Below the pieces are notes generated by a model, which worked only from the letters and a program-made list of their open reading frames with translations, was not told the origin of the DNA and did no database searches. The translations under genes and the position numbers were made by a program. From the NCBI GenBank assembly GCA_029983925.1, contig JASBYO010000002.1:5937-69936 (forward strand): DNA of 64,000 nt, written 5' to 3'. The DNA comes from Flexilinea sp. (GTDB lineage Bacteria > Chloroflexota > Anaerolineae > Anaerolineales > Anaerolineaceae). Positions 24,224 to 59,152 of the stretch are shown here, one piece after another; within the stretch, counting starts at the first letter, position 1; each line of letters begins with the position of its first letter.

Positions 24224-25417
24224 TTAGCCGAGGAAGCGAAGCGGCTTCTTGTTGAGCATGTCTTCCAAAACCGCGGCCGGGTTCTTGACCTTGCTGAGGA
24301 AGATCATCGCCGCGATGATATACGGCTTGTAGCTGGCTTCTTTATAAAGCGGGACGCGATAGCGATCGAATACCGACGCTTCGACTTCGCCCTTCTTGCA
24401 GCTGACGCCGGTAATATCCGCCGGGAGACAGTGCATATACAGCGCCTTGCCGTCTTTCGTCGTCTTCATCAAATCTTCCGTGCATTCCCAATCGGTATGT
24501 TCGGCGTTCTGGGCCAGGAGAACTTTCTCGAGCGCTTTAATACCGTCGGTATCGCCTTCGCCGTACAGGTTCGTCCGTTTTTCCATCGCTGCAAACGGCG
24601 CCCAGCTCTTCGGGTAAACGATATCGGCGTCAACGAAAGCTTCCGCCATCGAGTTGGTTTTCGAGAATTTTCCGCCCGCGGCCGCCGCGTTCTTCGCCGC
24701 GCCAGCTTCAACTTCCGGCAGAACCTCGTAGCCCTTCGGATGCGCCAGGACAACGTCCATTCCGAAGCGCGTCATCAAACCGATAACGCCCTGCGGAACC
24801 GAGAGCGGCTTCCCGTAAGAAGGCGAATAAGCCCAGGTCATGGCGATTTTCTTGCCCTTGAGTTTATCGACGCCGCCGAAATGGTTAATAATGTGGAGCA
24901 TGTCCGACATAGACTGCGTCGGATGATCGATATCGCACTGCAAGTTAACGAGCGTCGGGCGCTGTTCAAGGACGCCTTCTTCGTTGCCTTCCTTGACGTA
25001 CTGGCTAAACTCGCGCATGTAGGCGTTGCCCTTGCCGATATACATATCGTCGCGAATACCGACAACGTCCGCCATGAACGAAATCATGTTCGCCGTTTCG
25101 CGGACAGTTTCGCCGTGCGCGACCTGCGATTTGCCTTCCTCAAAATCCTGAACTTCCAAACCGAGGAGGTTCGCGGCGCTGGCGAAGCTGAAGCGCGTAC
25201 GCGTCGAATTATCGCGGAAGAGCGAAATCGCCAATCCGGAATCGAAGATGCGCGAGGAGATATTCTTTTCGCGCAAGCCGCGTAAAATATCGGCGACCGC
25301 AAACGTCGCGCGGATTTCGTCGTCGTTCTTTTCCCAAGTCAGCAGGAAATCGTCGTTGAACATCTTCGAGCAGTCGAGGCTCTTCAATTGCTGAATTAAG
25401 GCTTTCGTATTTTCCAT
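24224..25417 (-). CDS. ygeW: YgeW-type knotted carbamoyltransferase
   Basis: Near-colinear with E. coli YgeW as I recall it: FLLTWE, SLFRDNSTRTRFSFASA, GKSQVAHGETVRETANMISF, NLQCDIDHPTQSM, HCLPADITGVSC. Confidence 0.85.
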   Translation of the reverse strand: MENTKALIQQLKSLDCSKMFNDDFLLTWEKNDDEIRATFAVADILRGLREKNISSRIFDSGLAISLFRDNSTRTRFSFASAANLLGLEVQDFEEGKSQVAHGETVRETANMISFMADVVGIRDDMYIGKGNAYMREFSQYVKEGNEEGVLEQRPTLVNLQCDIDHPTQSMSDMLHIINHFGGVDKLKGKKIAMTWAYSPSYGKPLSVPQGVIGLMTRFGMDVVLAHPKGYEVLPEVEAGAAKNAAAAGGKFSKTNSMAEAFVDADIVYPKSWAPFAAMEKRTNLYGEGDTDGIKALEKVLLAQNAEHTDWECTEDLMKTTKDGKALYMHCLPADITGVSCKKGEVEASVFDRYRVPLYKEASYKPYIIAAMIFLSKVKNPAAVLEDMLNKKPLRFLG

Positions 25418-25451
25418 AGCTACCCTTTTATACTAATCCTATCTGAATTTA

Positions 25452-26663
25452 TTATTTCAATTTTTCAACATAGACGGACGGAACGGCGGCGTACATCGCG
25501 GCGGCTGTAACCAAATGGCTCGTCCAGGTCTTTTCGTTCGGGGCGTGCGCCTGTTCTTCCGCGCCGGGACCGAAACCGATACAGGGGATCCCATATCGTC
25601 CCATAATCGAAACGCCGTTTGTCGAGAACGTCCATTTATCGATAACCGGCTTTGAATCGAAGAGCGATTCATACGCGGTCGCCAGCGTCTGGGTCGCGAC
25701 ATGATCTTCCGGAATAACCCAGGTCGGGAAGTAGCATTCGGTCGGATATACCAAATCGGTATACGACGGGCGTTCATACGTATACATCGAAACTTCCGCT
25801 TTCGCTTCCTTGACGGACGGCAAATTGCGGATTTCCTGCAGCGCGCTTTCCCAGGTTTCGCCGTCAGTTAAGCGGCGGTCCAGCGAAATCGTACAGCTGT
25901 CGGCGACAGCGCAGCGAGACGGCGACGTGAAGAAAATTTCCGAAATCGTAACCGTACCTTTACCGAGGAACGGATCATAGTGCAGATTTTCGTTCAGCGC
26001 GCGGATTTCGTTGATAATCGGCGCCATCTTATAGATCGCGTTATCGCCGCGTTCCGGCGCGGAACCGTGGCAGCTGATACCCGGCGTATGGACCTTAATT
26101 TCCATGCGTCCGCGATGACCGCGATAAATTCGTAACGAAGTCGGTTCGGTAATCAGGACGAATTCCGGCTTGATTTTGTCTTCGTTGATAATATACTGCC
26201 AGCAGAGACCGTCGCAGTCCTCTTCCTGAACCGAGCCGACGACCAGCAGCGTATAGTCGTCTTCGAGATGAAGATCCTTAATGATCTTACCGGCGTAGAC
26301 CATGGAAACCATACCGCCTTCCTGATCCGAGCCGCCGCGACCGTAAATTTCGTCGCCGATAACTTTCGGTTCGAACGGGCCGGTAACCGTCCAGTTGGCG
26401 ATTTCGCCGACGCCGACGTTGTCAATATGCGCGTCCATGGCGATCAGGTGCTTGCCATGACCGATCCATCCGAGAATGTTGCCCATCGGATCGATTTCGA
26501 TTTTGTCGAAACCGACTTTTTCCATTTCTTCTTTGATGCGCTGGACGGTCGGGCCTTCCTGGCAGGATTCCCCAGGGATCGCGATCAAATCGCACATGAA
26601 CTTCGTCATATCGTCCGCGTAACTTTCAGCTTTCGCCTTGATTGCTTTGAAATCAATTGCCAA
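25452..26663 (-). CDS. ygeY: YgeY-family M20 peptidase/hydrolase (selenium-metabolism-linked family)
   Basis: M20 metal-ligand pattern ([24 protein letters not shown]). The N-terminus ([12 protein letters not shown]) is typical of YgeY. Directly upstream of ygeW. Confidence 0.8.
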
Positions 26664-27064: not shown

Positions 27065-27358
27065 TTAATAAATAATATCTTTTCCCATCATCACAATCGG
27101 TAAAAGCAAGATCAATCCGACGACCCATGCGACCGTCTCCAGCCTTACGCCCCCGACCGTATGTTCCGCCCCGCTGCGATTAAGATGTTTCGCAAGGCAA
27201 AAATTCACCAGCGTAACCATAACATGAAAAACAACGATCGCTATATATTGTTGTTTATCTGTTTTAAAAATCCGGGGCGCATACTTGCTCAACAAAGCCA
27301 GACCGCCGAAATAATCCGCTACGACGATCAGCAATCCGTATCCTCTAAAACTTATCAT
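27065..27358 (-). CDS. Small integral membrane protein, 97 aa
   Basis: Three hydrophobic segments (GLLIVVADYFGGLALL, IAIVVFHVMVTLVNFCLA, VAWVVGLILLLPIVMM). Followed by a terminator. No recognisable family. Confidence 0.5.
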   Translation of the reverse strand: MISFRGYGLLIVVADYFGGLALLSKYAPRIFKTDKQQYIAIVVFHVMVTLVNFCLAKHLNRSGAEHTVGGVRLETVAWVVGLILLLPIVMMGKDIIY

Positions 27359-27649
27359 CGCCTACCGCTTCAACACATTGTTAATCATTTCAGTATATAC
27401 CGGTATTGTACCAACGAATTCTTTAGATTCTTCGCGTTCTGCCCGGTAATTCCGATAAATCGCTTTATACCGCAGCGATCCGCCGAAAATCTGCCCTCGC
27501 TCAATTCGGAAATACGCAAAACCGCGAAAAAAAAGCCCGGCGCCGATCGCAGGATTCCGGCCTTGCCCCGCCCGTCCGAGAAATATGATTTTTCGCAAAA
27601 TACGCCCGGATACCAACGCCTGCAAAATATTCGTTGGTATAATTTTCTC

Positions 27650-28657
27650 ATGATCATCCGTAACGCTCAGCCGCCGCAACCGATTCTCGCCATCTCGCCG
27701 CCGAGTCTCGATTTTGGGCTCGTCAACTACGCCGCCGAGCCGACGGAAGGACATGGCATTGCCACGCTGACCGTCACGAACGACGGCGACCGCATGCTCG
27801 TGGGAAGAATCGCGATTCAGGTATCCTGGGTCAGCGTTTATCCCCCCGATTTTCGCTTAAGCCCGGGTGAAAGCAGCGACCATCTTTTCACCGTCCGCCG
27901 CGTCAACCAGCTCACCTGGAATTCGGGGCATAAACTCGGCTCCGAATTCGTCGCGTTGATCAACAGCAACGGCGGATCCGAAACGATCGGCGGTTATTAC
28001 TATATCGACAATAAAGAAATCGAAAAGAAAAAATCCCCCTTTACGCGGCGTATACTCGGCGTCGTCGCGTTGGCCGTCCTGATTACGGCGGCGATTCTCT
28101 ATTTCGTCCTCTATTCAGACCGCCAGATCCTCGAAATGCGCGGCACGGAAAACGTTTCCGCGCTTTATACGCAGCTGGCGGAAACAATCCTTTCGGATAT
28201 CGCGCTGAACGAACCGACGCCGTCGCGAACCGCACCGGGAATCGTCCTCCCGATCGCGAATATCCCCGGCGGCGCTCCCAGCGGCGAAGAAGCAACCTTT
28301 ACGCCCTGGCCGCAGGCGGACTATCCGGACCCGGAATCATTCGTTCGCTCCTACTATGATACGCTGAACGCCCGGAATTATTCCCTCGCGTGGTGGATGC
28401 TGTCAGAGAAGGTCCAAATCGCCTGCTGTTACAATAAGGGCGTCAATCCCATCGATTATTTTACGACCGTTTGGAGCGAGATTTCCGATATCGAAGTCGT
28501 CTACGCCTATCTCCAGAATCCCGGAGAAAATCCTGCCGTTCTCAATATCGCTATCAATTATACGAATGAGGACGGGACAAAATCGCAATACGATTTACGC
28601 GTTGAAGTTATTTCTTCCTCAACTCAAGGAACGCTCCTGATCGACTTGATCCAGTAA
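27650..28657 (+). CDS. Single-pass membrane protein with an N-terminal Ig-like domain and a C-terminal NTF2-like domain (hypothetical)
   Basis: Start moved to the ATG at 27650, because the upstream part of the track ORF overlaps the 27065-27358 gene and looks non-coding. TM segment ILGVVALAVLITAAILYFVLY. Confidence 0.55.
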   Translation: MIIRNAQPPQPILAISPPSLDFGLVNYAAEPTEGHGIATLTVTNDGDRMLVGRIAIQVSWVSVYPPDFRLSPGESSDHLFTVRRVNQLTWNSGHKLGSEFVALINSNGGSETIGGYYYIDNKEIEKKKSPFTRRILGVVALAVLITAAILYFVLYSDRQILEMRGTENVSALYTQLAETILSDIALNEPTPSRTAPGIVLPIANIPGGAPSGEEATFTPWPQADYPDPESFVRSYYDTLNARNYSLAWWMLSEKVQIACCYNKGVNPIDYFTTVWSEISDIEVVYAYLQNPGENPAVLNIAINYTNEDGTKSQYDLRVEVISSSTQGTLLIDLIQ

Positions 28658-28730: not shown

Positions 28731-28961
28731 ATGAAAGTCACTTTTGAAGAAGTCAAAAAAGTCGTTGTCGATGTTCTAAAAATCGACGGATCGGAAATTA
28801 CCCCCGAAACCGAGTTCATCAAGGATCTGAAAGCCGATTCAATGGATCAGTTCTTCCTAATCGACGGTTTTTCCGAAGCGTTTAATATTACGATCCCCGA
28901 TGATCAGGCGAAAGAAATCCGCTCGGTTCAGGATGTGATCGACGTTCTTGAGAAAATGTAA
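28731..28961 (+). CDS. Acyl carrier protein (orphan, not in a fab cluster)
   Basis: 76 aa, acidic, with phosphopantetheine attachment motif DLKADSMD. AGGAG RBS. Confidence 0.8.
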   Translation: MKVTFEEVKKVVVDVLKIDGSEITPETEFIKDLKADSMDQFFLIDGFSEAFNITIPDDQAKEIRSVQDVIDVLEKM

Positions 28962-28976
28962 AAAAGTCGCGAAGAA

Positions 28977-29016
28977 AAAACGGTACGCCGCGGCTTGTCC
29001 GTCCGGTACCGTTTTT
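28977..29016. terminator. Bidirectional terminator between the ACP gene and the sucD-like gene
   Basis: Stem AAAACGGTAC / GTACCGTTTT flanked by A and T runs on both strands. Confidence 0.6.
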
Positions 29017-29148
29017 GATTTTAAGTTTGGGCGTAGAAACGTTTCAAAACAACCGCGCAGCCGCAAGGCACAGACGATTATTAAATCAATCGACACACCG
29101 GCCAAAATTTACCCAAACGAAAAACGATATCCCTAAATTCTATTTCCT

Positions 29149-30027
29149 CTACGAATAACTCTCCAAAACTCGCGGAAGGTCGCGCAGCTGCCGCACGGTT
29201 CGGACGCCCATCTGTTGAAAGACAGTTTCCTTTCGCGCGACATCGCCAATCCCGCCGTCGATAAAAGCGCCCGACAAACCGAACGTCCGGCCTTTCGGAA
29301 ATTGACGCCCGGCGAAATAGGCGACGACCGGCGTCGACATCGAGAACATCACCTGCGAGGCGGCGCGTTCTTCTTCCTGTCCGCCGACGCCGCCGATTAA
29401 AACAATTTTCTTCGTATAAACGTCGGCGTCCAGCAGGGACAAAGCGTCGGCAACCGTCGTCCCCTGCAGCGTATCTCCGCCGATCCCGATACACGAACTG
29501 ACGCCGATCCCGGCATTTTTCAGCGTCTCCAGAACCGCATAGCTCAGCGTCCCGGAACGGGAGACGACGCCGACGTCCCCCGGAATCGCGCAATCAGCCG
29601 GATAAACGCCCAGAAGCGCGCTGCCCGGATTAAAAATCCCCGGGCTGTTCGGGCCGATAAAACGGGTCCCGCGCGCGTCGAAGGTGCGGCAAACCTTCGA
29701 AACGTCATGAATCGGGATCCCCTTCGTTACGCAAACGACGAGCGAAAAACTTCCCGCGTCGGCGGCTTCATAAAGCGCATCCAACGCCTGGGGCGCGGGA
29801 ACGAAAACGATCGAGGCTTTCGCCGTCGGAAAAATTTCCAGCGCCGTCTCAACGGAATCGAAGACGGGGACTTTTCCGTCCATAACCCACGTGCCGTCTG
29901 CGGTCGGAGAAACTCCGGCGACGATATTCATCCCGAATTCATACATCAAGCGCGCGTAATATTCGCCCGCCCGGCCGGTAATTCCCTGGACGATAATATC
30001 CATTTCACGATTGATCAGAATACTCAT
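29149..30027 (-). CDS. Succinyl-CoA synthetase alpha-subunit homolog lacking the catalytic histidine
   Basis: CoA-binding N-terminus MSILINREMDIIVQGITGRAG, and SRSGTLSY, GIGGD. The phospho-His motif GKRMGHAGA is replaced by GRTFGLSGA (Leu251, codon TTG at 29275-29277). Confidence 0.85.
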   Translation of the reverse strand: MSILINREMDIIVQGITGRAGEYYARLMYEFGMNIVAGVSPTADGTWVMDGKVPVFDSVETALEIFPTAKASIVFVPAPQALDALYEAADAGSFSLVVCVTKGIPIHDVSKVCRTFDARGTRFIGPNSPGIFNPGSALLGVYPADCAIPGDVGVVSRSGTLSYAVLETLKNAGIGVSSCIGIGGDTLQGTTVADALSLLDADVYTKKIVLIGGVGGQEEERAASQVMFSMSTPVVAYFAGRQFPKGRTFGLSGAFIDGGIGDVARKETVFQQMGVRTVRQLRDLPRVLESYS

Positions 30028-31172
30028 CCGGTCATCTCCTTCGTTTGCGCGACAGCGGAATTTACCGCATCCTCCAACGACGAACAGACGATAATCCCGC
30101 TGTTCTGCAGCAGGCTGTTGGCCTCCATCTTACCGTATCCGTCAAAATTGACGAAAACGGGAACGCGCCGGTCGGCTTCTTCCCATGCGCTCAACAGCCG
30201 CTTCGCGATTTCGCCGCAGGACGTCATACAGCCGTAGATATTGACAACGACCGCCTGAATCTTCTCGTCGCGGAGAAGAATCGTAAGCGCCCGGTTGGAA
30301 TGATCCGTTAGCGTCCGAGCGCCGACATCGACTAAATCGCTAACCGTTCCGCCCGCTTCAACGACGTAATCCATCGTCGCCAACGTTAACCCGGCGCCAT
30401 TCGCTAAGCAGGCGATCGACTTTTCATTTCCGAAATCAAGATAAACGAAGCCTTGCTTGAACGCTTCGAGCTCGTTTTCGCTGACGAGAATATAATTGGC
30501 GTGATCGGCGATGAACGACTGCCGAAAGAGCGCGCAGCGATCCAAAGCAATTTTCCCGTCGAGCGCGATGACGCGCTGATGCTCGGTAATTACGAGCGGG
30601 CTGAGCGCGACGTAACGCGCGTCAACCTGCGTAAAAAGCGACCACATTTGTAAACAAATATTGGTAAAGACCGATAACAGCGCCGGCGGAAATCCGGCCT
30701 GACGCGCCAAATTCCGGATCTGGTACCGCTGCAGCCCGATCAGCGGATCGATCGAAACGCTGATATCCTTTTCGTCGATCGCGTTCGCCGCCGCTTCAAT
30801 CCGTTTCTGGGCATCGGTATAAAGAATAAGCGCCGGATAGCGGGTCGCGCGGTCGATCGTCAGAACAACGAAATACTCATCCTGAATCGCGAGCGCCTCG
30901 TCGACTTGAACTTTATGGACCGGGAAACCGTCGATCCGCCCCGCCATCATCTCTGAAGAAATCGTCTCGGCCTCGACCGCAGACCGCGCGACGCGGATCC
31001 CGCCTTTCTCGCCTCGGCCTATAACCGGGATCTGCGCTTTAATAACGACCGGTTTTCCGATCTCCTCCGCGATATTTTTTACTTCGCGAGCCGACGAAGC
31101 GACTTTCCCGACCGGAACCGGTATCCCGTAACGGCGAAAAAGATTTTTAACCTGATATTCAAGCAGTTTCAC
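30024..31172 (-). CDS. Succinyl-CoA synthetase beta-subunit homolog (ATP-grasp)
   Basis: MKLLEYQVKNLFRRYGIPVP, VVIKAQIPVIGRGEKGGI, ANGAGLTLATMD. Overlaps the alpha gene by 4 nt. Confidence 0.85.
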   Translation of the reverse strand: MKLLEYQVKNLFRRYGIPVPVGKVASSAREVKNIAEEIGKPVVIKAQIPVIGRGEKGGIRVARSAVEAETISSEMMAGRIDGFPVHKVQVDEALAIQDEYFVVLTIDRATRYPALILYTDAQKRIEAAANAIDEKDISVSIDPLIGLQRYQIRNLARQAGFPPALLSVFTNICLQMWSLFTQVDARYVALSPLVITEHQRVIALDGKIALDRCALFRQSFIADHANYILVSENELEAFKQGFVYLDFGNEKSIACLANGAGLTLATMDYVVEAGGTVSDLVDVGARTLTDHSNRALTILLRDEKIQAVVVNIYGCMTSCGEIAKRLLSAWEEADRRVPVFVNFDGYGKMEANSLLQNSGIIVCSSLEDAVNSAVAQTKEMTG

Positions 31173-31297
31173 GCTCGTTCAGCCCCCTCCCTTTGAATGT
31201 AAATCCCGCTGAAAAAAAAAGTTTTACGCGATCGGAAGAATAACGGCGTCCGATCCGAAAAAACGTCCGCCGTTATTCCGCCGCGAAAATAATTTTA

Positions 31298-32362
31298 CTA
31301 ACCGTTCAGGAACGCCTCGACCGCCTCGCCGCTAATCCGGTAAGCGCTGCCAATTTTCCGCGCTTTAAGGTCGCCGGCGTTAATCGCCGCGATAATATCC
31401 TCCTCGGAAACTTTTAGGAGTTGGGCGACCTCGGCCGGAGTCATCACGGACTTAATCCCCGCTTCCGCGCCGGCGGCCGCTGACGCCGATGCCGGAGCGG
31501 GCGCCGGCTGCTGCGGCGCCGGCGGTTGAGCGAACGATTGGGTCATGAAATTTCCGAGTCCCATACCCGCGCCGATGCCCGCCGTTAATCCCGCGCCGCC
31601 GCTTGGATTTTTCGCGGCGTCGCGCAACGCGTCCGCCGCCTGAAGCTGCGTATACACGCTCATATCGAGCATACCCATCGCGCGTAATTCTTCAGCCGAT
31701 TTTTCCGACGGTTTCAAGCTGGCGATATAAAACGATTTTAGCGTCAACCCGATAGCGGCGAAATCGTCCTGAGCGCTGGCGCGGACCGCCGTCCCGATTT
31801 CCTCGACCAGGCTGATCAGTTCGAAAACGTTCTTATTCGCGGTCAGGGTACCCAAGACATCCTGAATCTTCGAAAGGAGCATCGTCCGCAAACGCGTTTC
31901 AATCGCGTCCAGCGTATAAGACGAACGCGATCCGACGATCTGGGTAATAAACTGCTGCGGATCGGCGACCTGGAAGCTGTACGTGCCGAAGCCCTGAAGG
32001 AGACTGACGCCGAGACCGACGCCGGTATTTCGGACGATAATCGGCTGGGACGTACCCCATTTCACATCAGCGAACTCACGCATCGAGACATAATATACTT
32101 CGGCCGTAAACGGCGTCCGTCCGTTAAACGCCAATCCGAGCGCGCCGGATAAAAGCGGGAAATTCGCGGTCGAAATCGTATGCCGGCCCGGGCCTAAAAC
32201 GTCCAGCGCGCGCCCGTCACGGAAAAAGACCGCTTTCTGGGACTCCCGGACAATAACCTGACTTCCAAAACGCAAATCGGCGACGCCCGTTTCCGGGAAA
32301 TGGTACGCCAATACGTTATGCATCTCATTCGGGTACTCAACTACATCAAAAATCCGTGCCAT
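31298..32362 (-). CDS. SPFH/Band-7 (COG4260, YdjI-like) domain protein fused to a C-terminal excisionase-type HTH
   Basis: N-terminus: FDVVEYPNEM...LAYHFPE...GSQVIVRESQKAVFFRDG, typical of the virion-core-like SPFH family. Then an Ala/Pro/Gly linker. C-terminus: MTPAEVAQLLKVSEEDIIAAINAGDLKARKIGSAYRI. Confidence 0.8.
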   Translation of the reverse strand: MARIFDVVEYPNEMHNVLAYHFPETGVADLRFGSQVIVRESQKAVFFRDGRALDVLGPGRHTISTANFPLLSGALGLAFNGRTPFTAEVYYVSMREFADVKWGTSQPIIVRNTGVGLGVSLLQGFGTYSFQVADPQQFITQIVGSRSSYTLDAIETRLRTMLLSKIQDVLGTLTANKNVFELISLVEEIGTAVRASAQDDFAAIGLTLKSFYIASLKPSEKSAEELRAMGMLDMSVYTQLQAADALRDAAKNPSGGAGLTAGIGAGMGLGNFMTQSFAQPPAPQQPAPAPASASAAAGAEAGIKSVMTPAEVAQLLKVSEEDIIAAINAGDLKARKIGSAYRISGEAVEAFLNG

Positions 32363-32413
32363 ATCTCTGCCTTTCTAACGCTCCCGCCGACGGGAGTTTT
32401 TATTTGTATCCGA

Positions 32414-32938
32414 TCAGGAATTGACAGTTCCCTGAATTACTTCGGAACGGCGGTTAAACGCGGTTACCAGCTCCGTCGCGACCGTCGTCAATTCGCGGAT
32501 TGCCTGATCGAGCTCGGTTTCCGCGCCGCCGGCCTCGATCGTATCTAACCGCTTCGCGACCTCGTCAACCAATCCATACAAATACAAATCATAGTCATAC
32601 AGCTGGTTCAGCGCAACTTCGTCAACCTTGATCGCGTCCATTAACCCGGCGTAACCGTACGACGCCGTCCTGATCCGATCGATAAACTGGCGAATTTTCA
32701 GCGCTGGCGATTCGAGATCGCCCATCGGTCCCAACGCGCCCGCTTTCAGGAGCTGACGCTGAACGCTGCTGATTCGCGCCCATTGATCCTCTAAACGTTT
32801 GGCGATCGTTTCGCGAACAATTTTATCCGTCGTCCGACGATCTTCTTTTTCTTTATATCCTTTTACGCCCGGGATTTTTTCGATGAATTTTTCGAATCCG
32901 CCCTTGCCCGCCGAAACGATGTCATTCAGGTTTTCCAT
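32414..32938 (-). CDS. Hypothetical helical protein, 174 aa, likely co-transcribed with the SPFH-HTH gene
   Basis: ORF 51 nt upstream of the SPFH gene on the same strand. Charged, heptad-like composition. No family recognised. Confidence 0.6.
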   Translation of the reverse strand: MENLNDIVSAGKGGFEKFIEKIPGVKGYKEKEDRRTTDKIVRETIAKRLEDQWARISSVQRQLLKAGALGPMGDLESPALKIRQFIDRIRTASYGYAGLMDAIKVDEVALNQLYDYDLYLYGLVDEVAKRLDTIEAGGAETELDQAIRELTTVATELVTAFNRRSEVIQGTVNS

Positions 32939-34456: not shown

Positions 34457-34951
34457 ATGACCAAGACGCCTATACCCGCCGGAGCCGAACCCGACTTTCG
34501 GTCAACCCAAGCAGGCGTATTAAAAGAAGCGGGCGGCTGCGTCGAGCTCAGCGCCAATATCGACGACCAGCCCGCCGAAACGCTGGCGTTCGCGCTGAGC
34601 CGCGCCCTCGACGCCGGCGCGCTCGACGCCTGGTTTACGCCGATCCAAATGAAAAAGAACCGCCCCGCCGTGACGTTTACCGTCCTGGCGCGGAAGGAAG
34701 ACGAGACGCGTCTCGCCGAATTGATCTTGCGCGAAACGTCGACGCTCGGCGTCCGCGTAAAGGAATGCGTTCGATACGTCGCCGGCCGCGACTGCGTCCG
34801 CCGGGAGACGCGCTTCGGTACGGTCCGGTTCAAGCGAAAAATCCTGAACGGGAAAATCGTCTCGGAACGTCCCGAATACGACGATCTCGAACGGATCGCG
34901 CGCGAAACCGGGCTTTCGATCGGCGAAATCCTGAACGAATTAACGGAATAA
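34457..34951 (+). CDS. Stand-alone LarC C-terminal domain (LarC2-like, DUF111 C-terminal part)
   Basis: VELSANIDDQPAETLAFALSRALDAGALDAWFTPIQMKKNRPAVTFTVL...ETSTLGVRV...PEYDDLERIA matches the C-terminal third of the nickel-insertion protein LarC. GGGAGGA RBS. No LarC N-terminal coding sequence upstream. Confidence 0.7.
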   Translation: MTKTPIPAGAEPDFRSTQAGVLKEAGGCVELSANIDDQPAETLAFALSRALDAGALDAWFTPIQMKKNRPAVTFTVLARKEDETRLAELILRETSTLGVRVKECVRYVAGRDCVRRETRFGTVRFKRKILNGKIVSERPEYDDLERIARETGLSIGEILNELTE

Positions 34952-35846: not shown

Positions 35847-36599
35847 ATGAACCGTATCAAATCCCGTTTCAATCTTAAGTCGTTTCTTCTCCTTGTCCTC
35901 GCCCTGCTGCTGGGCTATGGAATCCGTCCTGTCCGCGCGATGCATATCATGGAGGGATTCTTACCGAAAGGCTGGGCGATCTTCTGGTTCGCCGTTTCGG
36001 TTCCGTTCTGGATTATCGGTTTTATCCAAATCCGGAAAATCGTCGCCGAAAAACCGGAAAGCCGGCTGCTGCTTGGTTTTTCCGGCGCGTTCAGTTTCGT
36101 CCTCAGCGCGTTAAAAATCCCTTCCGTGACCGGCTCCTGCAGCCACCCGACCGGCACAGGTTTCGGCGCGCTCCTCTTCGGCCCGTTCCCGATGGCGATT
36201 ATTGGCACGATCGTGCTGCTCTTCCAGTCGCTCCTGCTGGCGCACGGCGGATTAACGACGCTCGGCGCGAACGCGTTCAGCATGGCGATCGCCGGACCGC
36301 TGATCGCCTGGGCCGTTTGGAAAGCGCTAAAAGATAAACTTCCGCAATCCTGGGTCATTTTCCTTGCCGCCGCGCTGGCAGATTTGCTGACATACGTCGT
36401 AACGTCCGTTCAGTTAGCGTTGGCGCATCCGGATCCGGTCGGCGGATTCGCCGTCTCTTTCGCGAAATTCGGAAGTATTTTCGCGATTACCCAAATTCCG
36501 CTCGCAATCAGCGAAGGGATCCTGACCGTCCTGATCTTCAACGCGTTAAAGAAAAACGCGCCTGCCGAATTGAAATCCTTGGGAATCGAGGGAGTTTAA
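35847..36599 (+). CDS. cbiM: Cobalt ECF transporter substrate-capture component CbiM (with N-terminal leader)
   Basis: A 31-aa signal-like leader ending VRA, then MHIMEGFLP, the conserved metal-binding N-terminus. Multiple TM segments. Confidence 0.9.
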
Positions 36600-36601
36600 A
36601 G

Positions 36602-36901
36602 ATGAAAAATAATACCTGGCTGCTGATCCTGATCGTTATTGTTTTGGCGCTGCTGCCGATTTTTCTGACGAAAGGCGCCGAATTCGAAGGCGCGGACGTT
36701 ATCGCCGAAAACGCGATCGGAGAGATCAACCCTGATTACGAACCCTGGGCGGAATCGCTTTGGGAACCGCCGTCCGGCGAAATCGAAAGCCTTCTCTTCG
36801 CGCTTCAGGCCGCGCTCGGCGCCGGTTTTATCGGCTATTATCTCGGAAATAAAAGCGGTCAAAATAAAAACGCCGGTTCCAAAAAACCGAAATCGTCATA
36901 A
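36602..36901 (+). CDS. cbiN: Cobalt transport protein CbiN
   Basis: 99 aa, two TM segments flanking FEGADVIAE...PWAESLWEPPSGEIESLLFALQAALGAG. Confidence 0.9.
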   Translation: MKNNTWLLILIVIVLALLPIFLTKGAEFEGADVIAENAIGEINPDYEPWAESLWEPPSGEIESLLFALQAALGAGFIGYYLGNKSGQNKNAGSKKPKSS

Positions 36902-37660
36902 ATGCGTTGGATCGACCGCTTCGCGTATAACAATCGTATCCGCAGGTTGGATCCGGCCGTCAAAGCCGGATTCAGCCTGATCATGATCCTGGTCTGCCTC
37001 GGTTTCGACAGGCCGTATGTCAGCGCCGCCGCGCTTTTGCTGATCCTTATTCTTTCCGTTTCGCTCGCCGGACTTCCGCTCCGATCTTTCCTGAAAATCC
37101 TCGCCGGAGAAGCCGCGTTCCTGATATTAAGCGTCGTCCCGATCGCGGTCAGTATCGTCCGGCCGTCCGCGGCGGAACCGGTTCCGGTTTTTCCGCTGAA
37201 GCTGCTGATAACGCGCGATTCGGCGCTGAACGCGCTGAATCTTCTGACGCGGACGCTAGCCTGTATCAGCGCGATGAATTTTTTGTCGATGACGACGCCG
37301 GTTGTCGATCTGATCGACTTGGCCGGACGGCCGCGCGTTCCGGAAATAATGATTGATTTGATGACGCTGATTTATCGCTTCATATTCACTTTATTCGACT
37401 GTTTGGAACGGATGACCGCCGCGAAAGAATCCCGTCTCGGATTCCGTTCACTCCGAACCGCATTCCGCAGCGCCGGCGAAATCGCCGCTAATTTATTCCT
37501 CGAAACCTATCGGAGAAGCCGGAAGCTTCAAGTTTCACTGGAAAGCCGCTGTTGGGACGGGGCGTTTCGCGTCATTCCGCAAACGTACGACCCGATCCGT
37601 TCCCTTTGGGAAAGAGCCCCTTCCCGAAATCAGCCCGTACAAAATCGGGAAACGCTATGA
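36902..37660 (+). CDS. cbiQ: ECF transporter transmembrane (T) component CbiQ
   Basis: Position after cbiN. The DPAVKAGF start and polytopic profile are typical of CbiQ/EcfT. Confidence 0.85.
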   Translation: MRWIDRFAYNNRIRRLDPAVKAGFSLIMILVCLGFDRPYVSAAALLLILILSVSLAGLPLRSFLKILAGEAAFLILSVVPIAVSIVRPSAAEPVPVFPLKLLITRDSALNALNLLTRTLACISAMNFLSMTTPVVDLIDLAGRPRVPEIMIDLMTLIYRFIFTLFDCLERMTAAKESRLGFRSLRTAFRSAGEIAANLFLETYRRSRKLQVSLESRCWDGAFRVIPQTYDPIRSLWERAPSRNQPVQNRETL

Positions 37661-38382
37661 CCGAATTATTCTTTGACGATATCGTTTATACGTATCCCGG
37701 CGTTAACGCCCCGGCGCTGAACGGCCTTTCGCTGCGAATCGGATCAGGGAAACGAATCGCCCTGATCGGGCGGAACGGCGGGGGAAAATCGACGCTGATC
37801 CTGGTCGCGAACGGAATTATCAGGCCGGATCGGGGAACGCTCCGTATCGACGGCGCGCCGGTCGATTATAAGAAAAAAGGAATTTACCGACTGCGGGAAC
37901 GCGTCGGCGTCGTTTTCCAGAACCCGGAAGACCAGCTTTTCAGCGCCAACGTTTATCAGGATATCAGCTCAGGACCGCTGAATCTCGGACTTTCGATCGG
38001 CGAAGCGCGCGAACGCGTCGAAGAAGTCGCCGAACGCTGCGGGCTGACGGCGCTTCTCGACCGCCCGACCCATGCGCTCAGCGGCGGAGAAAAAACCCGC
38101 GCCGCCCTGGCCGGAATTCTCGCGATGCGCCCCGAATTCCTTTTCGCCGACGAAGTGACCAACGCGTTAGACCCGTGGATCCGGATCCAGGTCCTGAACA
38201 TCCTGGACAGCTGGGCGGCGGAAAATCACACCGTCGTCCTCTCGACGCACGACTGGGATTTAGCGGCGAACTGGGCGGACGAGATCGTCTGGCTCGAAAA
38301 GGGAAAAATTTACCGCCAGGGAAAACCCGAAGAAATATTTCCTGGCGGGACCCAACCGGAAAGGTACCGACGCGATGGCTGA
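37657..38382 (+). CDS. cbiO: Cobalt ECF transporter ATPase CbiO
   Basis: ATGA overlap with the cbiQ stop. Walker A GRNGGGKST, signature LSGGEKTR, Walker B FLFADEVTNALD. Confidence 0.9.
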   Translation: MTELFFDDIVYTYPGVNAPALNGLSLRIGSGKRIALIGRNGGGKSTLILVANGIIRPDRGTLRIDGAPVDYKKKGIYRLRERVGVVFQNPEDQLFSANVYQDISSGPLNLGLSIGEARERVEEVAERCGLTALLDRPTHALSGGEKTRAALAGILAMRPEFLFADEVTNALDPWIRIQVLNILDSWAAENHTVVLSTHDWDLAANWADEIVWLEKGKIYRQGKPEEIFPGGTQPERYRRDG

Positions 38383-38920
38383 AATAAACAAACAAACCGC
38401 AAAAGGATTGATCGTCGTTTTTACCGGCAACGGGAAAGGGAAAACGTCCGCCGCAATGGGCGTCATGACCCGCGCCGCCGGTCACGGATTTAACGTTTCC
38501 GTCATTCAATTTTTGAAAAATCCGGGGCGCGTTTACGGCGAAGCCGTTTCCGCGCAAAAATTAGGCGTGCCGTTTGAAAGCCTCGGAACCGGATTCGTTT
38601 TCAAAAAGGATCAAAACGGAGAAGATTATCAGGCGGCGATAGCGGCCTGGGAGAAAGCGAAGGAGCGGATTCAATCCCAACCCGAAGGCGTCATTATCCT
38701 CGACGAAATCACCTATCCGCTCAATTTCGGCTGGATCGATCCGGACGAACTGATCGGTTGGCTCAAGATCAACAAGCCGCCGCAGCTTCACCTGGTTCTG
38801 ACCGGACGGAACGCGCCGGAGAAACTGATCGAATTTGCCGACATGGTCACCGAAATGAAAGAAATCAAACATCCGTATCGGCTTCAAAATATTCCGGCGC
38901 AAAAAGGCATCGATTTTTAG
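38375..38920 (+). CDS. cobO: Cob(I)yrinic acid a,c-diamide adenosyltransferase (CobO/BtuR type)
   Basis: GLIVVFTGNGKGKTSAAMG P-loop, ILDEITY, and KHPY near the C-terminus. Confidence 0.9.
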   Translation: MAEINKQTAKGLIVVFTGNGKGKTSAAMGVMTRAAGHGFNVSVIQFLKNPGRVYGEAVSAQKLGVPFESLGTGFVFKKDQNGEDYQAAIAAWEKAKERIQSQPEGVIILDEITYPLNFGWIDPDELIGWLKINKPPQLHLVLTGRNAPEKLIEFADMVTEMKEIKHPYRLQNIPAQKGIDF

Positions 38921-38932
38921 GAGTTATGCATC

Positions 38933-39736
38933 ATGAAAACGACTCAGCAGCAAAAAGCGTTATTGGCCGTCAGTTTCGGGACCAGTTTCACGGACGCGCG
39001 CAAGCGGGCGATCGAGGCGGTCGAAGCCGAGTTAGCCGCCGCGTTCCCCGATTTTACGCTGAGGCGCGCGATCACGTCCCATCAGCTGTCAAGCGTGAAA
39101 AGCGCCGCGCCGCGGGCGGGACGTTTTGTCTCCGAAGCGTTTAAAGAACTGCGGGACGACGGCTTCCGCGAAATTCTGATTCAGCCGTTTCATATTATTC
39201 CCGGGTTCGAATTCGAAAAAATAAAGCGCGAAGCCGGCCGTCATGCCGGATATTTCGAACGCGTCTTCGTCGGGAAACCGCTTCTCTCCGATGACGCCGA
39301 CTTTAAAGCGGTCGCCGAAGCGCTCCGCCCGCTCTTCTTATCGTTGAAAAAAGCCGAGGCGCTGCTGTTCATGGGCCACGGTTCAAAACATGCCGCGAAC
39401 GATGCCTATCTTCGGATCGACGCCGAATTCCGGAACGCCGGTTTTCGCTCCGTATACGTAGCGACCGTCGAAGGGGAGCCCGGATTGGCGCCGTTGATTC
39501 CGGCGCTTAAATCCGCCGGGATCCGAAAGCTGATCCTCCAGCCTTTCATGCTCGTCGCCGGAGATCACGCCCACAACGACATGGCGGGCGGCGATCCGGA
39601 CAGCTGGAATTCAGTCCTCAGCGCCGAGGGTTTTGAAGTCGAGCCGCGATTGATCGGCCTTGGCGAATACGAAGCGATTCGGAAAATTTACGTCAGACAC
39701 GCGCTCGACGCGTTAAGCGCGGGGAACGATGGCTGA
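38933..39736 (+). CDS. cbiK: Sirohydrochlorin cobaltochelatase, anaerobic type
   Basis: LLAVSFGTS, IQPFHIIPGFEF, FMGHGSKH and QPFMLVAGDHAHNDMAG match CbiK. Confidence 0.85.
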   Translation: MKTTQQQKALLAVSFGTSFTDARKRAIEAVEAELAAAFPDFTLRRAITSHQLSSVKSAAPRAGRFVSEAFKELRDDGFREILIQPFHIIPGFEFEKIKREAGRHAGYFERVFVGKPLLSDDADFKAVAEALRPLFLSLKKAEALLFMGHGSKHAANDAYLRIDAEFRNAGFRSVYVATVEGEPGLAPLIPALKSAGIRKLILQPFMLVAGDHAHNDMAGGDPDSWNSVLSAEGFEVEPRLIGLGEYEAIRKIYVRHALDALSAGNDG

Positions 39737-41576
39737 AATCGCGCCGGGAAAAGTCTATTTCATCGGCGCCGGTCCCGGAGACCCGGAACTGATCACGATC
39801 AAAGGCGAAAAACGGATCGCCGCAGCCGGCCTGATCCTCTACGCCGGATCGCTCGTTCCGAAAGAAATTTTGCGCGCCGCGCGATCAAACGCTGAAATTC
39901 ACGATACTGTCCGGATGCCGCTGGATCGGCAGATCGACCTCATGGCAAACGCAGCTTGGGAAGGGAAAGCCGTCGCGCGCGTTCATACCGGCGACCCGTC
40001 GATTTTCGGCGCGATCCATGAGCAGATGCGCGGATTACGCGCCCGAAACGTCGCGTTCGAGGTCGTTCCCGGCGTAAGCTCGGTTTTCGCCGCCGCGGCC
40101 GCCTTAAACCTTGAATTTACGCTGCCCGAATTAACCCAAACGCTGATCCTGACGCGCGTTTCGGGACGGACGCGCGTCCCCGAAAAAGAACGACTGCGCG
40201 ACCTGGCGCGTCATCGCGCCAGTCTGGCGATTTTTCTCAGCGCGTCCCTCCTGCCGCAGGTCGTCAGCGAACTCGCCGAGGCCGGATACGCCGCCGATAC
40301 GGCCGTCGCGGTCGTTTACCGCGCCAGCTGGCCGGACCAGATCGCCGTCCGCGCGACGCTCGGAACGATCGAAGCCGAAGCGGGCCGCGCCGGATTAACA
40401 AATCAGAGCCTGATCATCGTCAGTCCGGGATTGGATAAACAGCCCGCTCCGACTGTTTCGCATCTTTACGGCGCGTACCAGGACCGGGAACGGACCCGCT
40501 CCGGTCACGCGATTTTCGCGATGACCGAACCGGCGATCGCGTTCGCGCGGAGGCTGCTGAACGAACTCCCGAACGCGGCTTTATTCGTTCCGGAAACGCT
40601 GATCAAAGACGATTCGGACGCGGAAAAAATGATCGCGATCCGGAACGGCGTCCGCGACGCGCTTCAAAACGAATTCCTGCGCGCGGAAAGTCTGATCTGC
40701 ATCATGGCGTCGGGGATCGTCGTCCGTTCGATCGCGCCGCTGCTGACGAACAAACATCGCGATCCGGCGGTCATCGTCAGCGATCCGCAAGGAAAATTTA
40801 TCGTCAGCCTGCTCGGCGGTCACGAAGGCGGCGCCAACGCGCTCGCTCAGCGTATCGCGCGGTTCAGCGGCGGGCAAGCCGTCGTTACCACAGCCAGCGA
40901 TAACCGGAATATCCCCGCGCTCGACGTTTTAGCTCAGGACCATCGTTGGACGATTCATCCGCAAAGCGATTTGGCCGCCGTCATGGCGGCGCTCGTCAAC
41001 GAAACGCCGGCAACGCTGCTGCATGATCCGGATCTCGAACCGCCCGACGCGCTGCGGACAATCGGTTGGGAAACGGTCCGTCCGCTTTCGGAATCGGACC
41101 GCGATCTCAAAACTCCGGCGGTTATTTTCACGTACCGCGCGTTCGGCTCCCTGCGAATCGAGAATATGAAAAGAATCGCCGTGATCCGCCCGCGAATTCT
41201 CTGCGTCGGCGTCGGCTGCAACCGCGGAACGGCCGCCGCTGAAATTCTGGACGCGATTTCGGAAGTTTTCAACGATGAAAAACTCTCGTTCGAATCCATC
41301 CGCGAAATCGCCAGTATCGAAGCGAAAGCCGACGAAAAAGGATTGATTGAATTAGCGCGGTCGCGCGACTGGAAGATTCGCTTTTTCAATCGAACGGAAA
41401 TCGAATCCGTTTCGAATCTGATTCAGCCTTCGGCGGCGGCATTAAAAGCGCTCGGGGTCAGCGGCGTCGCCGAACCTTCAGCGCTTCTCTCGGCGCAGAG
41501 CCGGAAATTACGCGTCCGGAAACGGAAATTCGCGAACGTTACCGTCGCCGTCGCGGTATATCAGGAAAAATCATGA
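39729..41576 (+). CDS. cbiFG: Fusion: cobalt-precorrin-4 C11-methyltransferase (CbiF) plus cobalt-precorrin-5A hydrolase (CbiG)
   Basis: N-terminus: VYFIGAGPGDPELITIKG...YAGSLV (CbiF). C-terminal 360 aa contain ICIMASGIVVRSIAPLLTNKHRDPAVIVSDPQGKFIVSLLGGHEGGAN (CbiG). Confidence 0.85.
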   Translation: MAEIAPGKVYFIGAGPGDPELITIKGEKRIAAAGLILYAGSLVPKEILRAARSNAEIHDTVRMPLDRQIDLMANAAWEGKAVARVHTGDPSIFGAIHEQMRGLRARNVAFEVVPGVSSVFAAAAALNLEFTLPELTQTLILTRVSGRTRVPEKERLRDLARHRASLAIFLSASLLPQVVSELAEAGYAADTAVAVVYRASWPDQIAVRATLGTIEAEAGRAGLTNQSLIIVSPGLDKQPAPTVSHLYGAYQDRERTRSGHAIFAMTEPAIAFARRLLNELPNAALFVPETLIKDDSDAEKMIAIRNGVRDALQNEFLRAESLICIMASGIVVRSIAPLLTNKHRDPAVIVSDPQGKFIVSLLGGHEGGANALAQRIARFSGGQAVVTTASDNRNIPALDVLAQDHRWTIHPQSDLAAVMAALVNETPATLLHDPDLEPPDALRTIGWETVRPLSESDRDLKTPAVIFTYRAFGSLRIENMKRIAVIRPRILCVGVGCNRGTAAAEILDAISEVFNDEKLSFESIREIASIEAKADEKGLIELARSRDWKIRFFNRTEIESVSNLIQPSAAALKALGVSGVAEPSALLSAQSRKLRVRKRKFANVTVAVAVYQEKS

Positions 41577-42328
41577 GCGGATCCATTCGAATCATCGGCA
41601 CCGGGCCTGGCAATCTATCCTGGTGCGCCCCCGGCGCAATCTCCGCACTCGAAAAATCGACGGTGATTGTCGGCTATCAGACCTACCTGGACCAAATCGC
41701 GGAACTCTGCCCGCAGACGCCGCGTTACGGGAACGGGATGCGCCGGGAAGTCGAACGGGCGAAAAAAGCGATCGCTTTCGCCCGCGAGGGTCATCAAGTC
41801 GCCGTCGTCTCCGGAGGCGACGCCGGCATCTACGGCATGGCGGGGCTGGTACTGGAACTCCTCTGTCTGGATGATACAGCGATCGAGGTCGAAGTCCTGC
41901 CCGGGATCACGGCGCTGACCGCCGCGGCCGCGCTGCTCGGCGCGCCGTTGATGAGCGATTTCGCCGCGATCAGCCTGAGCGACTACCTCGTCCCGAGCGA
42001 AACGATTTTCCGAAGGCTCAGAGCCGCCGCCTTAGCCGATTTCGCGATCTGCTTATATAATCCGACCTCGGCGAGACGGCGCGGCATTTTTGAAACGGCG
42101 TGTTCGATCCTGATCGAAACGCTCGGCGAAGCGCGCCCGGTCGGGCTTGTGCGCGCAGCTTTCCGCCCGGCTCAGTCGGTCCAAATCGGTCTGCTGAGCG
42201 AGCTGAGCCGGATGGAACTGGGGATGGATTCGATCGTGATCGTCGGAAACAGCGCGACGAAAATCGCGCGCGGCCGCATGATCAGTTCGCGCGGGTACCG
42301 CCTGACGGAGAATTCGGCGAATTTTTAA
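41573..42328 (+). CDS. cbiH: Cobalt-precorrin-3B C17-methyltransferase
   Basis: IRIIGTGPGN...VIVGYQTYLDQI...VVSGGDAGIYGMAG. Confidence 0.85.
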   Translation: MSGSIRIIGTGPGNLSWCAPGAISALEKSTVIVGYQTYLDQIAELCPQTPRYGNGMRREVERAKKAIAFAREGHQVAVVSGGDAGIYGMAGLVLELLCLDDTAIEVEVLPGITALTAAAALLGAPLMSDFAAISLSDYLVPSETIFRRLRAAALADFAICLYNPTSARRRGIFETACSILIETLGEARPVGLVRAAFRPAQSVQIGLLSELSRMELGMDSIVIVGNSATKIARGRMISSRGYRLTENSANF

Positions 42329-42349
42329 CGGACTGGAGAAAACTGCGAT

Positions 42350-42970
42350 ATGAAACCGGAGGAAATTGAAAAGGAAAGTTTCCGGATCATCCTGAACGAG
42401 ATAGGGCCTCATTCGTTCAGCGAACGGGAACTCCCCATCGTTCAGCGCGTTATTCACGCTACCGCTGATTTTGAATATCGGGAGCTGATCCGTTTTTCGC
42501 CGAACGCGATCGATGCGGCGATCCGCGCGATCCGTTCCGGCTGCCGCGTATATTCGGACGTGCGCATGATCGAAGCCGGAATCGGCCGCCCGCTGATGGA
42601 ATCGTTCGGCTGCGTTTCCGGCTGCTACGTGAACGACGCGAACGTCGCCGAAACGGCCAAACGCAACGGGAAAACACGTTCAGAAACGGCGATGCGCCTA
42701 ATCGGAGCGGATTTGGAAAACGCCGCCGTCCTGATCGGAAACGCGCCGACAGCGCTTTTTGAAGTCCTCCGTCTTTACGCGGAAGAGAGGATCCGGCCGG
42801 CGTTCGTCGTCGGCGTTCCGGTCGGTTTCGTCAACGCCGCCGAATCGAAGCTGGCGCTAACCGAAAGCGGACTCGATTTCATCAGCGTCAGCGGACGGAA
42901 AGGCGGTTCAACCGTCGCCGTCGCGATCTTCAACGCGCTGCTGAGGCTGGCGAAACGGAGCTGCGAATGA
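42350..42970 (+). CDS. cbiC: Cobalt-precorrin-8 methylmutase
   Basis: IEKESFRII..., VIHATADFEY, GNAPTALFE. Confidence 0.9.
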   Translation: MKPEEIEKESFRIILNEIGPHSFSERELPIVQRVIHATADFEYRELIRFSPNAIDAAIRAIRSGCRVYSDVRMIEAGIGRPLMESFGCVSGCYVNDANVAETAKRNGKTRSETAMRLIGADLENAAVLIGNAPTALFEVLRLYAEERIRPAFVVGVPVGFVNAAESKLALTESGLDFISVSGRKGGSTVAVAIFNALLRLAKRSCE

Positions 42971-59093: not shown

Positions 59094-59152
59094 CAAAATA
59101 TCACGCGCCTTTCCGTCAAGCGTTAAATCCCGAACCGAAACCGTCCGAACGA

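Follow-up and report, generated by a model that had tools for sequence, protein, structure and literature searches.

Succinyl-CoA synthetase (SCS) is among the most conserved enzymes of central metabolism, and the phospho-histidine shuttle on which it depends is textbook chemistry. The 64,000-nucleotide stretch of Flexilinea sp. DNA analysed here (the window; Anaerolineaceae, Chloroflexota) carries two adjacent minus-strand genes for homologs of its beta (SucC) and alpha (SucD) subunits. In the alpha protein, leucine stands where the phosphoryl-carrying histidine is expected. Canonical residues are given below with the suffix a or b for the alpha or beta subunit, and the gene pair comprises the following features.

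30024-31172, minus strand: SucC-like beta gene, 382 amino acids (aa), GTG start, with the Pfam domains ATP-grasp_2 and Ligase_CoA
29149-30027, minus strand: SucD-like alpha gene, 292 aa, with the Pfam domains CoA_binding and Ligase_CoA/Succ_CoA_lig
30024-30027, minus strand: 4-nt overlap (ATGA) of the beta stop and the alpha start, a translational coupling
31183-31191, minus strand: Shine-Dalgarno-like GGGAGGGGG, 10 nt 5′ of the beta GTG, read from the sequence
29275-29277, minus strand: TTG codon of alpha Leu251, at the position of the phospho-histidine His246a in HMMER and MAFFT alignments

The sequence-only reading of this DNA had described a pair of SCS-related genes overlapping by 4 nt, and this description holds: both open reading frames (ORFs) exist with the ATGA overlap, and Pfam and phmmer agree on the family. 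All Pfam domains expected of SucCD alpha and beta scored above cut-off in the two proteins. In phmmer searches against all chains of the Protein Data Bank (PDB), the best match of alpha was the SCS alpha chain 2yv2_A (E = 1.4e-66), and SCS beta chains were the best matches of beta (3ufx_B, E = 7.3e-61). Neither subunit reaches the curated NCBIfam cut-offs for SCS equivalogs: alpha scored 298.1 bits with NF004230 (cut-off 336) and 292.9 with TIGR01019 (cut-off 353.2), and beta 299.8 bits with NF001913 (cut-off 370) and 283.0 with TIGR01016 (cut-off 375.6). The Shine-Dalgarno sequence of the beta gene is strong, so that ribosome-binding signal and coupling are both retained, and the same ATGA overlap is found in the related loci L004, L027 and L029. 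A scan for promoter and terminator consensus sequences returned counts no higher than expected from shuffled sequence.

The SCS fold is predicted to be intact in both subunits. AlphaFold2 models built from 40-sequence alignments reached a predicted local distance difference test score (pLDDT) of 90.6 and a predicted template modelling score (pTM) of 0.89 for alpha, and a pLDDT of 88.4 for beta; alpha is modelled least confidently at residues ~241-260, the loop that formerly carried the phospho-histidine. In Foldseek comparisons, the alpha model superposed on E. coli SCS alpha (2nu6_A) with a template modelling (TM) score of 0.95 and a root-mean-square deviation of 1.4 Å. The best match of the beta model was SCS beta 3ufx_E (E = 5.8e-39), with TM scores of 0.64-0.72, which reflect that in a beta chain on its own the angle between the domains is free.

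In SCS, His246a is the phosphoryl carrier, and Glu208a and Glu197b assist its phosphorylation and dephosphorylation (PMC10342173). The swinging histidine is used throughout the superfamily of nucleoside diphosphate (NDP)-forming acyl-CoA synthetases, in which only the histidine loop can bridge the distance between the ATP and CoA sites (PMC13018889). The HMMER alignment of the window alpha subunit to SCS alpha chains runs through this loop without gaps, pairing GRTFGLSGAFIDGG with (K/E)KRMGHAGAII. When the query and E. coli SucD were aligned by MAFFT with the 120 best homologs from a search of 5.8 billion proteins, 118 sequences had His in the His246 column, 3 had Leu (the query, P0001 and P0003) and 1 had Thr (P0002). 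The only histidine of the alpha subunit is H107; because it lies far from the catalytic loop, no local indel can restore a histidine there. The replacement of His246 by Leu251 and the unambiguous local alignment, both asserted from the letters alone, are thus upheld by the gapless HMMER alignment and two MAFFT alignments, none of which places a histidine at the catalytic position.

An alternative is that the leucine is an artefact of sequencing, assembly or misalignment, and that the enzyme is an ordinary SCS. We found no evidence for it. NCBI, ENA and Logan assemblies, made from separate samples and with different assemblers, contain 21-22 contigs that encode the identical 292-aa sequence; these contigs differ by only 0-5 nt, too few for an analysis of strain-level polymorphism. 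The nearest His-bearing ortholog has the codon CAT, from which Leu TTG differs at 3 bases and Thr ACT at 2, and changes are also seen at more than 10 further catalytic or invariant positions. With the alignments in agreement, we give an artefact virtually no credence. The substitution is also shared by orthologs, in which the sequence-only reading had proposed to look for it: two further lineages lack the histidine, one with Leu/TTG (L001 and L007) and one with Thr/ACT (L003 and L006), so not all orthologs keep His.

The phospho-histidine is one of several catalytic elements that have been altered, in both subunits, as located below by alignment.

29389-29391, minus strand: alpha Gly213 at Glu208a, the site-I partner of the phospho-histidine
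29722-29724, minus strand: alpha Lys102 at Glu97a (ITEGIP motif), Lys in 8/8 members of the window clade
29899-29901, minus strand: alpha Ala43 at Lys42a
30606-30608, minus strand: beta Ala189 at Glu197b, the site-II partner of the phospho-histidine
30600-30602, minus strand: beta Ser191 at Asn199b
31008-31022, minus strand: beta I51-G52-R53-G54-E55, a degenerate GGRGK phosphate loop with Lys56b replaced by Glu; E. coli positions 52 and 53 vary in the clade
30300-30323, minus strand: beta G284-A285-R286...H291, the remodelled DxGGGA loop, now DxGAR..(D/N)HS
30225-30230, minus strand: beta Cys315-Met316 at Gly321-Ile322 of the NIFGGI loop; the Gly321 position is C/G/N in the clade

Some of these residues have roles that we assume here. 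We take Lys42a to be a contact of the CoA 3′-phosphate, Asn199b and Asp213b to be Mg2+ ligands of the ATP-grasp site, and Glu97a, which belongs to the CoA/acyl-phosphate site, to be the equivalent of human Glu105a by residue arithmetic on the human sequence; the titles of PDB entries 7msr and 7mst name an E105Qa mutant with succinyl-phosphate. At the motif level, GGRGKAGG of beta has become IGRGEKGG, DxGGGA has become DVGART, NIFGGI has become NIYGCM and the STEGG motif is lost; in alpha, Cys123 is replaced by Ser. The window clade consists of 8 members, namely 7 His-less loci and the His-bearing locus L002. Among positions at least 95% conserved in canonical enzymes, 53/126 in alpha and 30/64 in beta are altered in it.

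The changes within the clade are of two kinds. New residues have been fixed throughout at alpha Lys102 and beta Glu55, Ser191, Arg286 and His291; the canonical enzyme has Gly and Lys where Arg286 and His291 are invariant in 8/8 members. Other former catalytic positions vary: His246 is L/T, Glu208 is G/E (Gly in 4 His-less loci, Glu kept in 3), beta 52 is I, M, S, E or A, beta 53 is G/Q/R and beta 321 is C/G/N. The CoA Rossmann residues G14, T16, G17, P40, F71, P73, T96, N122 and P124 are invariant in the clade, as are the N-termini of the two phosphate-cradling helices, SRSGT and NGAG.

Compared with known systems, the pair is closest to SCS itself (E. coli 1SCU/2SCU, Thermus 3UFX, archaeal 2YV1/2YV2), with which it shares the two-gene coupled layout, the domain architecture, 40-45% identity in alpha and ~33-35% in beta, and the predicted alpha fold (TM 0.95). 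It differs by lacking His246a, Glu208a, Glu97a, Lys42a, Glu197b, Asn199b, Lys56b and the GGG and FGGI loops, both of which are glycine loops in the C-terminal domain of beta. The window beta subunit naturally has the alanine that was engineered at the same position of E. coli SCS in the E197betaA mutant (PDB 1JLL), and 1JLL_B is among its best sequence and structure matches; that mutant is otherwise wild type, whereas the window protein has many further losses. Fraser et al., in 2002, reportedly found the mutant to be no longer phosphorylated by ATP. Other members of the superfamily with the same domains (citryl-CoA synthetase 6HXQ, ATP-citrate lyase, malate-CoA ligase, archaeal ACD and FdrA) are far less similar: the MtkA-type model NF010647 gave 226 bits against a cut-off of 604, and the ACD models were also far below theirs. 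These NDP-forming relatives all use the swinging histidine (PMC13018889), which the window pair lacks.

Taken with the established mechanism, these losses suggest that the pair is not an NDP-forming acyl-CoA synthetase, because the carrier histidine and residues of both half-reactions are gone. Without His246a, nothing would carry phosphate from the ATP-grasp site to the CoA site; without Glu197b, Asn199b and Lys56b, the nucleotide half-reaction would be crippled; and without Glu208a and Glu97a, so would the half-reactions at the CoA site. None of the three partial NDP-forming reactions could then be coupled. The claim that the canonical phospho-histidine mechanism would be impossible, first made from the leucine, gains from the loss of further catalytic residues in both subunits.

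The losses can be followed step by step in related genomes. A scan of one genome per GTDB species, with peptide patterns specific to the window alpha subunit, recovered Flexilinea sp. O2D_20 (98% identity), an uncultured Anaerolineaceae metagenome-assembled genome (79%, Thr at the histidine position) and Flexilinea sp. O15_7 (76%, Leu); the next matches were ordinary Anaerolineae SucD at 46-50% identity. Of the 120 best beta homologs, 101 have both Glu197 and Lys56, and the remaining 19 have neither. These 19 are the window clade and an intermediate group of Anaerolineaceae (P0005-P0011, P0150-P0163, P0519 and MBQ4511595.1), same-locus orthologs that share the replacement of beta Glu197 by Ala and the loss of Lys56b. 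They differ from the window pair in keeping His246a, Glu208a, Glu97a, Asn199b and mostly Lys42a, and in a conserved beta Glu52, and they may still be enzymes. One of them, P0519 ('Flexilinea sp.', GCA_035425425.1), occupies this locus too and carries the annotation succinate--CoA ligase. The locus L002 already has beta Ser199, GAR, Glu56 and His291 and alpha Lys97, and keeps His246 and Glu208.

A neighbor-joining (NJ) tree of concatenated alpha and beta gave 100% bootstrap support to each of the nested groups: intermediates plus clade, L002 plus the His-less loci, and the His-less loci. In the resulting order of loss, beta Glu197 and Lys56 come first, in the wider Anaerolineaceae group. The next step removed Asn199 and the GGG loop from beta and Glu97 and Lys42 from alpha, and the final losses were those of His246 and, in part of the lineages, Glu208 from alpha. 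The loss of the histidine was a late, single event followed by drift at the site (Leu TTG to Thr ACT), since the tree is nested and L002 has other changes and retains His246. Root-to-tip distances in the NJ tree increase from 0.68-0.76 in canonical pairs to 0.98-1.10 in the intermediates and 1.26-1.31 in the clade, and the divergence of alpha plus beta relative to the neighbouring SPFH gene is about twice that of canonical pairs.

Two further observations concern these relatives. In the intermediates (L027-L031, P0150-P0163 and P0519), the replacement of beta Glu197 by Ala is accompanied by a conserved change of Gly52 to Glu in the phosphate loop, in 15/15 members seen; this Glu52 could be a relocated catalytic glutamate, or could belong to an already impaired enzyme. 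Separately, L023, L024 and L026 form a divergent Anaerolineaceae SucCD subgroup that keeps the histidine and has SRPGSL, GIGSDPVKC and GHLGA in alpha and IEIKPL (Asn199 replaced by Lys) in beta.

The sequence-only reading called the pair a SucCD-like heterodimer, which could suggest an additional paralog. The genes around the pair show that it is not one.

32414-32938, minus strand: upstream neighbour, a 174-aa helical protein with no Pfam match and a weak LIMLP_15305-family match
31298-32362, minus strand: upstream neighbour, an SPFH/Band_7_1 protein with a C-terminal HTH_17 (excisionase-type) domain
28731-28961, plus strand: acyl carrier protein (ACP) gene, 76 aa, convergent, in ancestral synteny

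The gene order (174-aa helical protein, SPFH/HTH_17, beta, alpha, convergent ACP) is common to the His-less loci, their His-bearing sister L002, the intermediates L027-L030 and the canonical loci L008-L010, L022, L024 and L026. Because this block is shared with both canonical and intermediate loci, the window pair is a positional ortholog of the ordinary Anaerolineae sucCD, at the ancestral locus that SCS genes occupy in other Anaerolineae, and not a paralog. No second SucC or SucD was detected in the 64-kb window when E. coli SucC and SucD were compared by phmmer with all six-frame ORFs.

Selection on the pair was estimated as the ratio of nonsynonymous to synonymous substitution rates (dN/dS) by the pairwise Nei-Gojobori method (NG86), on stop-to-stop ORFs and close pairs, as dS is saturated for deeper ones. 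For alpha and beta, respectively, the ratio was 0.094 and 0.067 between the window and L004, 0.080 and 0.047 between the window and L005, 0.039 and 0.074 for L003-L006, and 0.038 and 0.051 for L001-L007. In the same pairs, the neighbouring genes gave 0.03-0.05 (SPFH), 0.03-0.04 (YgeY) and 0.02-0.07 (YgeW), and in canonical Anaerolineae SucD was mostly at 0.02-0.07 (0.14 in the low-divergence pair L012-L014) and SucC at 0.02-0.06. At a dS of ~0.75, the His-less L001-L007 (0.038, 0.051) is indistinguishable from the canonical L011-L018 (0.041, 0.038). The His-less clade thus represents three lineages in which alpha and beta are under purifying selection, and both ORFs are full length in 7/7 His-less loci, which diverge to 69-78% identity. 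After a burst of change, purifying selection returned at the strength seen for the active enzyme.

These values bear on the possibility that the pair is a neutral relic, the decaying and not yet disrupted leftover of an enzyme of the tricarboxylic acid (TCA) cycle, one that a fermenter no longer needs. The hosts are indeed strict fermenters, many without a full TCA cycle (PMC5481317, PMC11653643), evolution was sped up 2- to 4-fold in the lineage, and one ENA contig has a split alpha gene. A relic is nevertheless very improbable, because the genes are intact, coupled and under strong purifying selection in three lineages: dN/dS of 0.04-0.09 in independent His-less lineages equals that of active SucCD and of neighbouring housekeeping genes, and full-length ORFs, the Shine-Dalgarno sequence and confidently predicted folds have all been retained. 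The split copy (P0125/P0126, 79 + 211 aa, on a contig of 2758 bp) is either a frameshift allele or an assembly error, and is the only disrupted copy among the cluster members.

The evidence probably points to a selected pseudoenzyme, that is, a SucCD ortholog turned into a non-ligase alpha-beta heterodimer and kept for binding, scaffolding or regulation. The pair combines homology and orthology to an active enzyme with the loss of essential residues and with intact ORFs under purifying selection. After a stepwise loss of catalytic elements, the folds, the coupling, the CoA Rossmann core and the two phosphate-cradling helix N-termini would all have been kept, and the heterodimer would be retained to bind CoA, an acyl-CoA or an anion, or as a scaffold or regulator, instead of serving the reaction of succinate, CoA and a nucleoside triphosphate. 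From the conserved residues, the complex plausibly still binds CoA or acyl-CoA, or an anion in the old phosphate cradle. Among the options first listed for the pair, a pseudoenzyme or a binding or regulatory complex fits best, as selection is strong and yet the former catalytic positions vary freely within the clade. The ecology also fits a selected pseudoenzyme: the type species, Flexilinea flocculi, lives strictly by fermentation, with acetate, lactate, succinate, propionate, formate and H2 as its products (PMC5481317).

Several points weigh against this interpretation. Ligase loss is read from residues; the dN/dS values come from a simple pairwise method on stop-to-stop ORFs, with dS saturated for the deeper pairs; and the conserved neighbours of the pair are kept beside active enzymes as well. 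In the ATP-grasp domain, K46b, R54b, E107b and D213b have been kept, which leaves room for nucleotide binding or even some chemistry. Moreover, the replacements fixed clade-wide (aK102, bE55, bS191, bR286 and bH291) would also fit a new catalytic site.

The main rival is a neofunctionalised enzyme, with a new activity or a mechanism that needs no swinging histidine, such as acyl-CoA hydrolysis or transfer at a remodelled site I, or phosphoryl chemistry through beta His291 and Arg286 and alpha Lys102. In its favour, a burst of substitutions on the stem branches was followed by constraint equal to that of the active enzyme, and many canonical-invariant positions are fixed anew in 8/8 members, with charge reversals in the region of the active site (aE97K, bK56E, bG->R286 and bK->H291); the CoA Rossmann core, both phosphate-cradle helices and K46, R54, E107 and D213 of the ATP-grasp domain have been kept. 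However, the sites of the usual chemistry (H246, E208, bG52/G53 and bG321) vary in the clade, which is unexpected for a site in use, the ATP and CoA sites are too far apart without the histidine loop (PMC13018889), and no precedent was found in the literature searched. We regard a new enzymatic activity as improbable.

A tentative reading, less likely than not, is that of a rebuilt functional module: the old succinate/phosphate pocket would have been re-lined by the clade-invariant aLys102, bArg286 and bHis291 around the preserved CoA Rossmann core. Such a module could be a sensor or carrier of CoA, acyl-CoA or anions, or a ligase or transferase that bypasses the phospho-histidine, and would be one of a wider set of His-less SucD-like proteins.

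Such a set came to light when 1.84 billion representatives at 50% identity were searched with a profile built from the clade: at least 12 full-length SucD-like representatives without the catalytic histidine were among the best 150 matches (P0291, P0297, P0329, P0334, P0345, P0360, P0372, P0380, P0411, P0414, P0428 and P0429). They are only 30-50% identical to one another and 30-45% identical to the window protein, and apparently constitute independent lineages. The histidine is replaced by Tyr in 6 (P0360 and P0380, for example) and by Leu (P0372), Arg (P0329), Pro and others in the rest, and Glu208 and Glu97 are often replaced as well. P0372, an orphan on a 2.4-kb contig, has Leu at the histidine position and Lys at the Glu97 position, as in the window protein. 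A few further His-less matches of this search were obvious frameshift products. SucD-like proteins have thus apparently lost the histidine repeatedly.

Full-text literature searches turned up no account of an SCS without the histidine, nor of SCS in Flexilinea. What appears to be new here is a natural, selection-maintained SCS ortholog with a traceable stepwise origin and, judging by its sequence, a disabled active site: a lineage in which both subunits jointly lost every element of the shuttle and yet stay under enzyme-grade selection. The series from canonical through Glu197b-less and His-bearing degenerate to His-less forms provides a stepwise record of how a heteromeric enzyme may evolve into a pseudoenzyme or a new role, and suggests that the SCS scaffold has a second function, one that active enzymes may share. 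Annotation based on domains or orthology would still call these genes sucC and sucD, and NCBI names the intermediates succinate--CoA ligase. On this basis, Flexilinea-type fermenters of digesters and guts would wrongly be given a step of the TCA cycle and of substrate-level phosphorylation when their metabolism is reconstructed.

The genes next to the pair had also been considered as clues to its function, and neither the ACP gene nor YgeW/YgeY lends specific support to any. Holo-ACP had been suggested as an alternative acceptor in place of CoA. In at least 10 other Anaerolineae loci, the ACP gene also adjoins a canonical sucCD that has the histidine, so it says nothing specific about the His-less form, and the idea draws no support from this neighbour. 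The whole block from the 174-aa protein through SPFH-HTH, sucC and sucD to ACP (28731-32938 in the window; L008-L010, L022-L024 and L026-L031) is kept whether the SCS is active or, as proposed here, dead. Just 5′ of the ACP gene and on the same strand lies a 498-aa ORF (27161-28657, plus strand) with no Pfam match and a central transmembrane helix; its counterparts in related contigs have ~335-364 aa, and it is conserved in Flexilinea-type loci and L029.

A stand-alone pair at 24224-26663 (minus strand) encodes a YgeW knotted carbamoyltransferase (TIGR03316, 761 bits) and a YgeY M20 hydrolase (TIGR03526, 681 bits). YgeY is linked to selenium metabolism, and no other genes of the ygeW-X-Y/hyuA/xdh purine-catabolic cluster lie close by. 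A carbamoyl-type, FdrA-like link of this pair to the SucCD homologs was rejected: it lies 2.5 kb off with two other-strand genes in between, is adjacent only in Flexilinea-type loci and absent from L002 and L027-L029, and the FdrA score is 40.9 bits against a cut-off of 433.

Further along the window, a plus-strand cobalt-transport and cobalamin cluster (~35847-48569) contains CbiM/N/Q/O, CbiK, CobA, CbiG, CobQ (46030-47418) and a Peripla_BP_2 protein. This cluster agrees with a B12-dependent metabolism, for instance the route from succinate to propionate that has been reported for Flexilinea. A LarA-like (Lar_N) protein is encoded at 57807-59258 (minus strand), and a 164-aa Ni_insertion (LarC-family) ORF at 34457-34951 (plus strand). 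The latter may be truncated, as related loci have LarC-like genes of 389-403 aa at the equivalent position.

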